The notes under the pieces are model-generated. The model searched no databases, was not told the origin of the DNA, and saw only the letters and a list, made by a program, of their open reading frames with translations. A DNA stretch of 64,000 nt, from NCBI GenBank assembly GCA_025544715.1, contig GCA_025544715.1_4109.1; one strand, written 5' to 3'. Numbering within the stretch: the first letter of the stretch is position 1; every line of letters begins with the position of its first letter. The position numbers and the translations under genes were made by a program. The stretch is from Escherichia coli. GTDB lineage: Bacteria; Pseudomonadota; Gammaproteobacteria; Enterobacterales; Enterobacteriaceae. Positions 56,810 to 62,236 of this stretch are shown piece after piece.

Positions 56810-57190
56810 TTACATATGAATAGAAAATAACTGTTTAAAATCATCACAACACAATGTTAATTCAGTTATTATCATTGCATCTGTCAGATATATGTACTGA
56901 CCTTCAACATAGTAAGGTGAAGTACATATTCTGTCAAGTGATGTAAACATTATAGAACTTTTAAATTCTCTTTGCAAGGGGATTTTTGTAAATTCATAAA
57001 GATTATTTTCTTTACAAATTCCATATCCAAACTTACTAAGACGTAAACCACCGCCAGTTCTGAAATTTTCAAAAATTGACATCAGAAGCATACGGTCTGT
57101 TATTTCTGAATCTGATTCATGTACTTCCCTAACTTTGGAAAGTACATTATTTTGATATTCAGTACTGTTATGTGATGGTTCTGGAAACAT
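56810..57190 (-). CDS. Hypothetical protein (126 aa), last gene of an eight-gene coupled operon
   Basis: ORF separated from the upstream gene by 3 nt. Confidence 0.6.
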   Translation of the reverse strand: MFPEPSHNSTEYQNNVLSKVREVHESDSEITDRMLLMSIFENFRTGGGLRLSKFGYGICKENNLYEFTKIPLQREFKSSIMFTSLDRICTSPYYVEGQYIYLTDAMIITELTLCCDDFKQLFSIHM

Positions 57191-57193
57191 ATA

Positions 57194-57589
57194 TTAGTCT
57201 CCAACAAAACCTTGACGTGCAGCATAAGATGGTGCACCAGGTTCATTATAGTGTTGTACACCTTCTTTGTCAATTGTTGGTCCCATACCTTCAGTACCAA
57301 AACAACCTGCAATGGCTTCCAACACTTCATCATCAGCAACTTCAGTACTTTCATCATTATATCGAATGTCAGACAAAATGTCACAGGCTTTTTGTAGTTT
57401 ATCTACAATTTCTTTTTGGTCTTCACCAGATTTAATCTTATCAACAATGTTAATAAGACATTTGGTAATATCCTTAAGAACATCAACTGCTACAACATCG
57501 GATTCAACTTCAACTGAAAAACTTTCGTCTTCATCTCTTCCGGTAATTTCGTCTAACGCTTCAACTAGTTCACGATAATTATATTGCAT
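57194..57589 (-). CDS. Acidic hypothetical protein (131 aa)
   Basis: Strongly D/E-rich; start 1 nt after the upstream stop. Confidence 0.6.
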   Translation of the reverse strand: MQYNYRELVEALDEITGRDEDESFSVEVESDVVAVDVLKDITKCLINIVDKIKSGEDQKEIVDKLQKACDILSDIRYNDESTEVADDEVLEAIAGCFGTEGMGPTIDKEGVQHYNEPGAPSYAARQGFVGD

Positions 57590-57590
57590 A

Positions 57591-58571
57591 TTATTTGTCT
57601 CCTAAAAATTTCTTGTATTTTTCTTGGAGACTTTCAAAAATATCTTCTACTTCTTCATCAGAATCATCTTCCAAGTCAATGTTACCTTCAGGTGAATCAT
57701 CTTCTTCACTTTCATTAACATTTAGTGGGTTATCTCCTAATGCAGTGCCTGGGAATTTTGGTTCAAATTTATGAACACGATTTTCGTTCCCTTCATTATC
57801 ATAATACTCAGGTTCTGGACGATTGTCAAGATCTTCATCTACAACACGTCTCCAATAAAACTGATTGCCTTTTGCAATTACAACAAAATGGTCACCTTCA
57901 ACACCATTAGTCTTTAGTTGACCATCACGAACTGCATCAGCTTCTGTTCCATATGGACCGTAATCAGTACTGTTAGATGGTTCTTCATCTTCAGAGATAC
58001 TTAGATCTGGTAGAAATTGGGTATCTTTCATTTCTTTATCGGTGGCAGGATTACCCTCTACGGAAAAATCTTCGTCTTCTTCTTCGTTAATACCAGCAAG
58101 GGATAGCATACGACTAAAATCGAATTCTTCTTCAATAATTTCTTCTTCTTCCTCATCGTCTTCTTCAACTGATTCTAGTTGAGGTTGACCACTAAGGTCA
58201 AGAGAAAAATCTTCTTCACCTTCTACACCTGGTTCTGAAAATTCAGCATCCATACTAACTTCATCTGAGTCAGCACCAAAATCACCAACATCAGCGGAAA
58301 GATCATCAACTGCCGCTGCTAGTGGGTCTTCAACTGAAGTTTCAATTCCACCAATTTCTTCTTCAGCACCAATAGAATCTAGATCTAGTGGAGCAATAGG
58401 TGGAAGAGATGGAGTCATAGACCCCATTGATGGTACTGGAGCAGCAACAACTGGGTCTTGACGTTCAGCTTGACCAGCAAGTGCTAACATACGTGATAGT
58501 GTTTCCAAATCATCAGATTCTAAACCTGCGATATCGATTTTAACTTGTGCTTCATTAATTTTTTTAGCCAT
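57591..58571 (-). CDS. Highly acidic protein (326 aa) with poly-D/E tracts and duplicated SRML(A/S)LAG motif
   Basis: Runs such as EEDDEEEEEIIEEEFDF and DLEDDSDEEVED; motif LSRMLALAGQAE repeated as FSRMLSLAGINEE; AAAGGA RBS. Confidence 0.7.
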   Translation of the reverse strand: MAKKINEAQVKIDIAGLESDDLETLSRMLALAGQAERQDPVVAAPVPSMGSMTPSLPPIAPLDLDSIGAEEEIGGIETSVEDPLAAAVDDLSADVGDFGADSDEVSMDAEFSEPGVEGEEDFSLDLSGQPQLESVEEDDEEEEEIIEEEFDFSRMLSLAGINEEEDEDFSVEGNPATDKEMKDTQFLPDLSISEDEEPSNSTDYGPYGTEADAVRDGQLKTNGVEGDHFVVIAKGNQFYWRRVVDEDLDNRPEPEYYDNEGNENRVHKFEPKFPGTALGDNPLNVNESEEDDSPEGNIDLEDDSDEEVEDIFESLQEKYKKFLGDK

Positions 58572-58593
58572 TTTAAATAAATCCTTTTAGTTA

Positions 58594-60655: not shown

Positions 60656-60658
60656 GTG

Positions 60659-61195
60659 TTAATCCTTTTTACCAAAACCAGCACTCATATATTGAGAGTA
60701 TTTATTGTCTTTTTTAGATGCTTCAATTGCATCATCAACTGCTGTTTCAGCACGTTGTTGACCAGCTAAATCATAACTGTCTTCTGGTTTACCAAAATCT
60801 ACACCAATAATTGGCTCATCAACATCATCAAAATCGATATCATCTTCTAGGTCAGTCATTTCAATTTGACGAGGTTCATCTTTACTGCGTACACGAATCA
60901 GTGCTTCGGTCATACTTAGTAAATTACCGATTTCATACATTAGTACGTTTGATTGAACACCACGATGACATTTAAAATCAAACATCCAAATTTCACCACA
61001 ATCTAATTCATAGAAATCTAATGGTTTTTCCATAAAAATTGTTTTCTTAAGTGCACCAATTTCAAATGCATCATAGCGGTCCATTAGTCGCTGTGTTACT
61101 TTACTAAGTTGTTCCGGTGATGGTTCAACTGCAAACTTAACTCGGTATTCATAAACTGGTTTTTTTTCAGTTAGGATTTGTTGTAATCTATTCAT
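60659..61195 (-). CDS. Hypothetical protein (178 aa), acidic C-terminal half
   Basis: ORF with GGAG RBS. Confidence 0.6.
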   Translation of the reverse strand: MNRLQQILTEKKPVYEYRVKFAVEPSPEQLSKVTQRLMDRYDAFEIGALKKTIFMEKPLDFYELDCGEIWMFDFKCHRGVQSNVLMYEIGNLLSMTEALIRVRSKDEPRQIEMTDLEDDIDFDDVDEPIIGVDFGKPEDSYDLAGQQRAETAVDDAIEASKKDNKYSQYMSAGFGKKD

Positions 61196-61222
61196 TTTAA
61201 TAACTCCATAAGGTCGTTTAAG

Positions 61223-61777
61223 TTATTTATTTCTGTTCATTGATGCAAGCATTTCATTGCGGGTTTTGTGAACTACAGTTTGCCCTTCAATTGCATCTGG
61301 GTCACCAACAGACTCAAGTTCTTTTTTTGGTTTCAAATTTAGTTCAATTTCCATTTTGTCTTTTTTAAGTTGGAGATCAACTAATTTAACATCTGAATCA
61401 ATTATTTTTGCATGAGCATCAAGAGCTATTTTTAGCATAGAGTTTGCAGCATTAATCATCTCTGCTGCAAAACGGTCTTCACAATTAAATGCTCTATCAA
61501 AAATATCCTCAAACTTTCGTTCTGCCATTTGTGCTAAACGATCCAATTGGGTTTTTCTTGCAGTAATATCAGGTAATTCCCTCAACTGTACACGCATTGC
61601 TTTGAGCTTTTCCATTGCAATCTTTGCATCTTCCAATGATATTTCAGTTTCAGTTTTGTCTTCATCCTGATACAAATCCATTTCTGTATCTTCTTCTGGT
61701 TCTTGACCAGTCATTTCAATCCATTGTTGAGCACTAGGTAATCCCAGTGCTTCGTCTATTTGTGGTTTAGATTTCAT
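61223..61777 (-). CDS. Hypothetical coiled-coil-like protein (184 aa)
   Basis: ORF with AAAGGAA RBS; charged heptad-like segments. Confidence 0.6.
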
Positions 61778-61807
61778 TTTTTGTATAGATTCCTTTCTGT
61801 TATAATT

Positions 61808-62236
61808 TTAAACTCCAATCCGGTTATTTTTACAAAATTCCATTGCATAAGCCCATTTGGATTGATTTATAGCAACTGCAATTTTTTCTTTTTTGGATTT
61901 AGCCAACTCCATGTGGCATTGTTTGTATGGCTTGACTTCTAGTACTTGAGCATGTTGCTTACCATCAGCACCAATATATAGTACATAAAAATCAGGCCAG
62001 TACTGGTGGACTTGTCCATCTATTGGACTAACATAAGGAATACTAAACGGCTCAATACTCCATTCAATGACTGCTGGATTATTATCCAATGAAATCATTA
62101 TGTCCTTTTCCCATGAACTACGGTATATTGGTTGATTATTACTTTTATACTTTTTAATGTTTTTTATAGGAAAGATACCTTGAGCTTGCTTAGTATTTGT
62201 TATCTTTGCTGGGTTAAATTGTTGATTGAAAGCCAT
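61808..62236 (-). CDS. Putative PD-(D/E)xK-fold nuclease (TnsA/Hjc-like core)
   Basis: IEWSIEPF...YWPDFYVLY...QVLEVKP gives an E...PD...EVK arrangement with typical spacing; start overlaps stop of the tail-tube-family gene. Confidence 0.55.

Follow-up and report, generated by a model that had tools for sequence, protein, structure and literature searches.

A candidate head-completion and DNA-packaging operon of Rak2-like jumbo phages and its putative capsid-internal proteins

Introduction

Phage T4 carries proteins into its head by means of a leader of about ten residues, a capsid-targeting sequence that the head protease then removes within the head (PMC7697877). Of the six inner-body genes of phiKZ, five form a cluster; the inner-body proteins are processed by a protease, and some head and inner-body proteins are injected (PMC13282480). 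A phiKZ-like inner body of 91 × 18 nm has been seen by bubblegram imaging in the Escherichia phages 121Q and phAPEC6; phAPEC6 encodes no homologues of the phiKZ inner-body proteins, and the constituents of the inner body are unassigned (PMC5646251, PMC7247149). Rak2-like jumbo phages (121Q, PBECO4, RaK2, GAP32, CBB and PA5oct) are in development for therapy, and most of their genes have no assigned function. Here we analyze eight consecutive minus-strand genes at positions 56810–62236 of a 64,000-nucleotide stretch of an Escherichia coli assembly (contig GCA_025544715.1_4109.1; hereafter the window).

The 5.4-kb region matches 35 GenBank phage genomes, each over at least 80% of the region's length, and is approximately 96.5% identical at the nucleotide level to the Escherichia phages 121Q, PBECO4, phAPEC6, SP27 and further members of Asteriusvirus, a genus of 'Rak2-like' jumbo myoviruses of roughly 350 kb. 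Aligned with 121Q, the window extends approximately from the portal gene to the tail-tube genes. A preliminary description, made by reading the letters, had listed eight minus-strand open reading frames (ORFs), which we recovered at exactly the same sizes and name here by their length in amino acids (aa): g142, g184, g178, g180, g501, g326, g131 and g126. With moderate confidence, we interpret them as a late head-completion and DNA-packaging operon of a Rak2-like jumbo myovirus that also supplies capsid-internal virion proteins. The virion association of five of the proteins was already known; what is new is a small-terminase candidate for the clade and a leader signature pointing to capsid-internal proteins and the inner body. 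Two gaps would be narrowed, with g184 as a concrete candidate for the clade's small terminase and with a short, testable list of possible inner-body constituents that includes predicted cleavage sites. Overall, the operon adds new protein families to familiar kinds of phage machinery and is mostly ordinary morphogenesis.

Head completion and DNA packaging

The first gene, g142 (61808–62236), is by sequence similarity a member of the T4 gp4-type head-completion nucleases, and its relatives are already annotated in this way. The protein matches the PD-(D/E)xK family PF08722 (TnsA-like_N) in Pfam at 60.7 bits against a cut-off of 26.5, phrog_218 'head closure' with E = 1.8e-40, and T4 gp4 itself at 31% identity (BLASTP, E = 1e-15). 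Like gp4, which is of the same size, it carries the E...PD...ExK residues, and the catalytic positions E43, D82, E100 and K102 are invariant across 12 orthologues. The preliminary description had predicted a PD-(D/E)xK nuclease in this protein and placed it in an ejected payload; the nuclease family holds, and the payload role is superseded by the gp4-type assignment, under which, by analogy with T4, g142 would act as a nuclease that completes the filled head for tail joining. The neighbors of gp4 in T4 are gp2 and gp3, whereas those of g142 are the tube genes and the putative small terminase.

A further difference from gp4 concerns the end of the Asteriusvirus protein, where the last ~13 residues are out of frame. 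Alignment with gp4 homologues locates a 13-residue remnant of the gp4 C-terminus in the +1 frame of the minus strand (61774–61815); in other genera, the gp4 homologues end with this sequence in frame. A single additional G shortens the gene in the 121Q group (ATTGGAG versus ATTGAG in RaK2; positions 61774–61823 of the window), and the TGA that ends the remnant overlaps the ATG of g184 (ATGA). In phage ph0011, at 85% nucleotide identity, all three nucleotide differences in the frameshift stretch are synonymous in the +1 frame. Two explanations could account for this arrangement: a truncation, tolerated over the ribosome-binding site of g184, or programmed frameshifting into the +1 frame.

Upstream of g142 lies a 364-aa tail-tube paralogue (62236–63330, minus strand; phrog_13438 tail tube protein, E = 8.5e-227), a homologue of the 121Q structural protein gp554, so the position downstream of the tail tube was correctly described. 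As a functional clue, however, this link amounts to gene order, and the functional neighborhood is instead head completion and DNA packaging. In PA5oct and in two distant metagenomic relatives, contigs L017 and L020, gp4 and the large terminase (TerL) flank the core of the block, which abuts TerL directly in two of the three. The order in PA5oct is tube, gp4-like gene, g184-like gene, a 200-aa g178-like virion protein, an acidic 498-aa virion protein (both detected by mass spectrometry (MS)) and TerL. L017 has the same order, and L020 has a PA5oct-like order followed by four inserted genes ahead of TerL. Leaving those insertions aside, a g178-like protein and one acidic protein separate the g184-like gene from TerL in each of these relatives, and the acidic protein has an R-M-x-x-L-A-G motif and a GDNP...terminal helix in common with g326. 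A closer relative, L021, contains all eight genes, with a g501 version of 686 aa. This distribution across PA5oct, L017, L020 and L021 suggests that g180, g501, g131 and g126 may be later additions of the Rak2-like lineage.

The second gene, g184 (61223–61777), probably encodes a T4-type small terminase, which would recruit phage DNA to the large terminase. We base this assignment on transitive profile matches, gene context and absence from virions. With an acidic N-terminal half and a highly conserved helical core, g184 is by far the best conserved protein of the operon (58–80% identity between genera). An exhaustive profile search returned 380 relatives, almost all of them 160–190 aa long, and 14 of 69 aligned family members match phrog_445 'terminase small subunit' (best E = 1.9e-5), with each other PHROG matched by no more than two of the 69. 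T4 gp16 (phrog_445 / phrog_735) matches phrog_445 with E = 5.5e-15 and is like g184 in length, in having an acidic N-terminal part followed by a helical core, and in being absent from virions. The UniRef entry for the homologue in fHe-Yen9-03 is named 'Phage terminase, small subunit'. No g184 homologue was found in the virion proteomes or annotations of 121Q, phAPEC6, CBB, GAP32, RaK2 and PA5oct. In PA5oct-type relatives the g184-like gene is upstream of TerL, standing two genes upstream in PA5oct and L017 with two virion-protein genes between. L020 has six genes in that interval, four of which are inserted (two homing-type endonucleases, a UDP-glucose dehydrogenase and a small ORF). The CBB paper reported only large-terminase domains in Rak2-like phages, and no small terminase of this clade is named in the literature searched. 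Two of the eight proteins, none of which had seemed assignable by eye, are now assigned: g142 as a gp4-type nuclease and g184 as a probable small terminase.

Several results weigh against g184 being a terminase subunit. A direct comparison of its family with T4 gp16 gave an hhalign probability of 0.2% and a local hidden Markov model (HMM) E of ~0.4, Pfam terminase models matched neither g184 nor the 69 family members, and TerL is not adjacent to the block in Asteriusvirus. As hhalign, the local HMM and Pfam showed no direct homology to gp16, the terminase call rests on phrog_445 and gene context. More generally, g184 had no match in Pfam, in NCBIfam or in a profile search of the PDB, and a locus search with the remote terminase-like alignment or with P0112 recovered no related locus. 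In Rak2-like phages TerL is outside the compared neighborhood; in CBB, for example, the g184 homologue is CBB_209 and TerL is CBB_275. Unlike the T4 gene, the g184-like gene is followed by two virion-protein genes before TerL in PA5oct and L017.

The TerL gene of the distant relatives is itself split or preceded by inserted ORFs (L017 3834–5617; L020 8249–12021). Insertions near it comprise NUMOD3- and HNH-type homing endonucleases, a 108-aa ORF and a UDP-glucose dehydrogenase, and the packaging block is apparently a hotspot of mobile-element insertion.

Virion proteins of the operon

Published MS on relatives identifies homologues of g178, g180, g501, g326 and g131 as virion proteins, and the 121Q homologues (gp557–gp561) are annotated as structural proteins. 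In phAPEC6, gp267c, gp268c and gp270c were detected in virions by electrospray ionization tandem mass spectrometry (ESI-MS/MS); CBB_210, CBB_213 and CBB_214 were detected by MS, and the CBB supplement gives an MS detection for each of the five homologues in two or more of CBB, GAP32 and RaK2. Virion association, which the preliminary description had suggested for the whole unit, is accordingly known for five of eight proteins and does not extend to g184 and g126, which are absent from virions, or to g142, a head-completion nuclease. None of the five has a Pfam or NCBIfam relative above threshold, and weak matches to sigma-70, saposin and phiKZ_IP models among the operon proteins all fell far below thresholds. 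Comparisons among the five, and with 121Q gp599, gp600 and gp602, gave no sign of paralogy (all z ≤ 3.5).

The homologue of g178 (60659–61195) is abundant in CBB virions, with 13 peptides covering 60.5% of CBB_210. The protein consists of a ten-residue leader (MNRLQQILTE), a domain with a generic ferredoxin-like fold (residues ~14–105) and an acidic disordered tail. In g180 (60113–60655), the leader MSILNE is followed by a second conserved LNE directly before a conserved RPYSR...GSGQ core, a P/Q-rich linker and a conserved C-terminal helix; its homologue gp558 is structural in 121Q, and MS detection was reported for GAP32 and RaK2. Profile searches of the PDB with the g178 and g180 families returned no relative. 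The g180 family bears an 'Hsp70' label (phrog_16152 and many GenBank records), which is unsupported: neither Pfam nor NCBIfam gave an HSP70 match.

The largest protein, g501 (58594–60099), had been described as containing two copies each of two different modules. The repeats are real, but they form three copies of a single composite module of ~95 aa, namely A (residues 8–94), B (137–240) and C (295–400), encoded at 59818–60078, 59380–59691 and 58900–59217 on the minus strand; the supposed two modules are the two halves of the two best-conserved copies. Self-comparison gave z = 17.7 for A–C and z = 9.3 for B–C, with A–B alone not significant. The AlphaFold model contains three repeats of one unit, each a three-strand meander, a long helix and a second three-strand meander, and then a C-terminal four-helix domain (58603–58767) that is strongly conserved and the most conserved part of the protein. 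An acidic disordered linker is also present. Across the family, lengths vary from 291 to 759 aa, with two to at least three tandem globular modules joined by disordered linkers. Structure comparison of the modules yielded no neighbor.

The acidity noted for the 326-aa and 131-aa proteins was borne out. In g326 (57591–58571), Asp and Glu (D+E) account for 29.1% of residues, with an isoelectric point (pI) of 4.05 and a net charge of −74, and Lys and Arg for 6.4%. Most of the protein is low-complexity and poorly conserved, with a long acidic disordered middle between a conserved N-terminus (MAKKINE...SRMLALAGQAE), a second SRMLSLAGINE motif and a small conserved C-terminal domain (GPY...FYWRR...ALGDNPL) with a terminal helix; its homologues phAPEC6 gp267c and CBB_213 were found by MS. 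The smaller g131 (57194–57589) is acidic and helical (24.4% D+E, pI 4.12, net charge −20), with a leader MQYNYRELVE and a conserved C-terminus (G..GMGP..Q.Y...SY...GFVG), and has homologues in the structural protein 121Q gp561 and in CBB_214, detected by MS.

A short motif, [DE]-h-x-R-M-x-x-L-A-G-x-x-E, occurs two or three times in members of the 326-aa family. Less strict versions (h-x-x-L-A-G or L-x-N-A-G) recur in the PA5oct 498-aa virion protein (L022 8164–9660) and in a metagenomic 311-aa protein (L017 2897–3832), the latter not being connected to the g326 family by ordinary HMM searches.

Prohead-type leaders

Four of the five virion proteins begin with a leader of 6–10 residues ending in L/I-x-E: g178 (LTE10), g180 (LNE6), g326 (INE7) and g131 (LVE10). 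Substrates of the T4 gp21 protease begin similarly, as recorded for ipII/ipIII (MKTYQEFIAE), gp22 (MLKEQLIAE), gp67 (MEGLIE), gp68 (MLLIPE), gp24 (MAKINE) and gp21 (MNEPQLLIE); the g178 leader MNRLQQILTE, for example, can be set beside MKTYQEFIAE. We scanned 67 annotated 121Q proteins from an 85-kb morphogenesis region for [LI]xE within residues 1–12, which revealed 14 proteins with such a leader. Five of these form the consecutive prohead block gp599–gp603, which includes an acidic core protein, the gp21-like protease, a gp22-like scaffold and the major capsid protein (MCP), and another five are in the operon studied here (121Q gp556–gp558, gp560 and gp561). By comparison, the leader occurs in just 4 of the other 55 proteins of that region, and the frequency in the virion proteins (4/5) differs from this background (Fisher test, p = 7e-4); the composition-matched chance of the motif is 8–16% per protein. 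Conservation among orthologues is complete for g180 ([LF]xE, 11/11), g326 ([IV]NE, 12/12) and g131 (L[VM]E, 12/12).

The gp21-like protease of 121Q is gp601, which we infer to have L/I-x-E specificity. The mass of the 121Q MCP falls from 42.2 to about 37 kDa (PMC5646251), a loss that fits a predicted cleavage after LTE43. Both a gp21-like protease and a gp22-like scaffold are thus found in the 121Q phage group as in T4, together with operon proteins that are present in virions. Homology is another matter: no PHROG or Pfam link connects the operon proteins with the T4 internal proteins (IPs), gp67 or gp68, with gp67 and gp68 falling in other PHROGs, and the operon virion proteins are larger and acidic compared with the T4 internal and core proteins. 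If the leaders do act as capsid-targeting sequences, they could serve to load foreign proteins into the heads of jumbo phages, for which T4 provides a precedent.

Capsid-internal proteins and the inner body

Since five virion proteins are encoded in a packaging block and four of them have prohead-type leaders, this cluster is the most economical set of candidates for internal proteins. From motif, context and analogy, we infer that the five are capsid-internal, whether as core, inner-body or ejected proteins, and consider this an even proposition. Under this proposal, the leaders would carry g178, g180, g326 and g131 into the prohead scaffolding core, the gp21-like protease would cleave after the leader Glu, and the mature, mostly acidic proteins would remain with the DNA inside the T=28 capsid, where they might build, or contribute to, the 91 × 18 nm inner body of 121Q and phAPEC6. 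Internal proteins may then exit with the DNA at infection. Without a leader, g501 could be internal or external, and g126 would be a non-virion accessory factor.

Some observations count against a capsid-internal location. The leader Glu of g178 is kept in 5 of 12 orthologues and is Asp or Ser in the other 7 (Asp in PA5oct), which makes cleavage of this protein doubtful; its distant homologues begin MKRFLDYIAE, MKQFATYLTE and MKRLIEYIIE. The motif also produces false positives, because g184, assigned as a terminase, has [IV]xE near its N-terminus, and g501 has no leader at all. The T4 internal proteins are not acidic and have no sequence similarity to the virion proteins of the operon. Finally, the phAPEC6 authors favored RCC1-like proteins as candidates for organizing packaged DNA around the inner body.

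A more specific and tentative version of this proposal is that the four leader-bearing acidic proteins, with or without g501, make up the inner body of 121Q and phAPEC6. A DNA-spooling core would then have evolved a second time, independently and from protein families that are not related to the phiKZ ones; it would be loaded into a T4-type prohead via T4-style leaders and at least partly ejected. Genes 3–7 of the operon are the best candidates so far for the inner body of this phage group. The phiKZ inner-body proteins (gp89, gp90, gp93, gp95, gp97 and gp162; PF12699) are likewise abundant head proteins of a jumbo phage with clustered genes and an inner body visible by bubblegram. The two sets are not homologous, however, with g131 giving the best PF12699 score among the operon proteins (13.7 bits; cut-off, 27); moreover, the lineage of the operon has a T4-like MCP and protease, and the protease motif differs from that of phiKZ.

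Other locations and roles would account for part of the evidence. The virion proteins, above all g501, might decorate the outside of the particle as hexamer-centre fibres, capsid 'hairs', collar or tail whiskers, with the C-terminal helical domain as an anchor, comparable to T4 Hoc. Both phAPEC6 and 121Q have unassigned capsid and tail decoration proteins and fibres, and g501 has features suited to such a role: tandem globular modules on disordered linkers in variable number (family range, 291–759 aa), a C-terminal domain that is the most conserved part, and no protease-type leader. The resemblance of g501 to Hoc-type proteins lies in its tandem modules ahead of a conserved C-terminal domain, a possible anchor, although the g501 modules are not Ig-like and have no structural neighbor. 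External decoration is nevertheless rather doubtful for the set, given the prohead-type leader in four of five proteins, the location of the genes in a head-completion and packaging block away from the fibre genes, the occurrence of g178-like and g326-like proteins in PA5oct and the lack of any fibre-like or Ig-like fold. It is less plausible still that the proteins are auxiliary scaffold or core for the T=28 prohead, largely degraded or expelled at maturation and seen by MS as leftovers. The leader signature is common to the scaffold gp602 and the core protein gp600, an acidic, helical or disordered character would suit a scaffold, and few peptides (1 to 5) were reported for the homologues of g326 and g131. 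On the other hand, the g178 homologue is abundant in CBB virions, all five proteins were repeatedly recovered in independent proteomes of five phages, and low peptide counts for g326 are expected because Lys and Arg are scarce.

The preliminary description had suggested that ejected acidic proteins and a nuclease would suit an anti-defense or host-takeover payload, and had compared the acidic composition with that of DNA-mimic anti-restriction proteins as well as scaffold or internal virion proteins. Precedents are T4 IPI, an anti-restriction protein that is ejected, and the acidic DNA mimic T7 Ocr. The extreme charge of g326 and g131, their virion association and the injection of some phiKZ head and inner-body proteins (PMC13282480) are compatible with such effectors, which we regard as improbable. 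Neither Pfam nor NCBIfam gave a match to an anti-restriction family of the Ocr or ArdA type, and scaffold and core proteins are just as typically acidic (T4 gp67, 44% D+E; 121Q gp600, 31%). DNA mimicry requires a fixed charge geometry, whereas g326 has an acidic part of low complexity and little conservation. Furthermore, the block is strictly conserved and syntenic in phages of Escherichia, Salmonella, Klebsiella, Cronobacter, Pectobacterium, Erwinia, Yersinia, Serratia, Xanthomonas and Pseudomonas, a pattern that fits a structural core better than a host-specific counter-defense, and the case for ejection and anti-defense roles has no support beyond charge. The position directly after the sheath gene and three tube paralogues could also indicate tail or neck assembly proteins (a terminator, tape-measure chaperones or neck components) co-expressed with the tube genes. 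We give this very little weight, as no PHROG, Pfam or fold match links any of the proteins to a tail component, the gp15-like, gp13-like, baseplate and hub genes are located elsewhere, and the block runs into the TerL gene in distant relatives.

Operon layout and conservation

The eight genes are closely packed, with distances of −1, 30, 27, 3, 13, 22, 1 and 3 nucleotides from the tube gene onward and a GGAG/AGGA-type ribosome-binding site in front of each. Translational coupling throughout, at spacings of 0–30 nucleotides, had been proposed; the spacing is nearly as described (−1 to 30 nucleotides), but strict coupling is limited to two junctions, tube to g142, where stop and start overlap by one base (TAATG), and g326 to g131. 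No terminator-like site was found on the coding strand inside the block, and the 3' limit of the operon is a 315-nucleotide spacer with two perfect sigma-70 promoters. The T4 late-promoter motif TATAAATA is under-represented, and there is none in the region. A perfect sigma-70 site inside g131 (57273–57245) was considered as a separate promoter for g126 and is treated as a chance occurrence because it is not conserved outside the 121Q group.

Gene order was compared in nine Rak2-like phages outside the 121Q species group, with hosts in seven genera (RaK2, GAP32, CBB, fHe-Yen9-04, XbC2, EJP2, Hallingskeid, Munch and BF). The series of sheath, three tube paralogues, gp4, seven genes, MoxR ATPase and VWA protein was kept in all nine. 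Some annotated start codons in these genomes are suspect: RaK2 ORF047 (L004 5792–6412) begins ~24 codons too far upstream, and EJP2_205 (L009 5360–5860) and EJP2_207 (6534–6986) have annotated starts too far downstream, with the loss of conserved N-termini.

The last gene of the unit, g126 (56810–57190), encodes a conserved non-virion protein (phrog_15638) with invariant Cys59, Cys89 and Cys114. It was not detected in any virion proteome, and a PDB profile search returned no relative; our guess is that it is an assembly factor.

Neighboring genes

At the upstream edge of the window, the 126-aa ORF listed at 63342–63722 is the C-terminal part of a 258-aa second tube paralogue (121Q gp553) that runs off the window end. 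Downstream of the operon, the two consensus sigma-70 promoters (56664–56786, minus strand) both score 12/12 with an extended −10 (TGnTATAAT), and promoter-like sites occur at the same place in relatives. The unit that they start (53670–56494) comprises genes for a 441-aa MoxR-type ATPase and a 474-aa VWA/DUF2201 protein, a pair annotated as N4 gp24/gp25-like in relatives. The MoxR ATPase has been found in phAPEC6 virions (gp265c, 6 peptides), which is odd for a gene apparently transcribed by the host polymerase.

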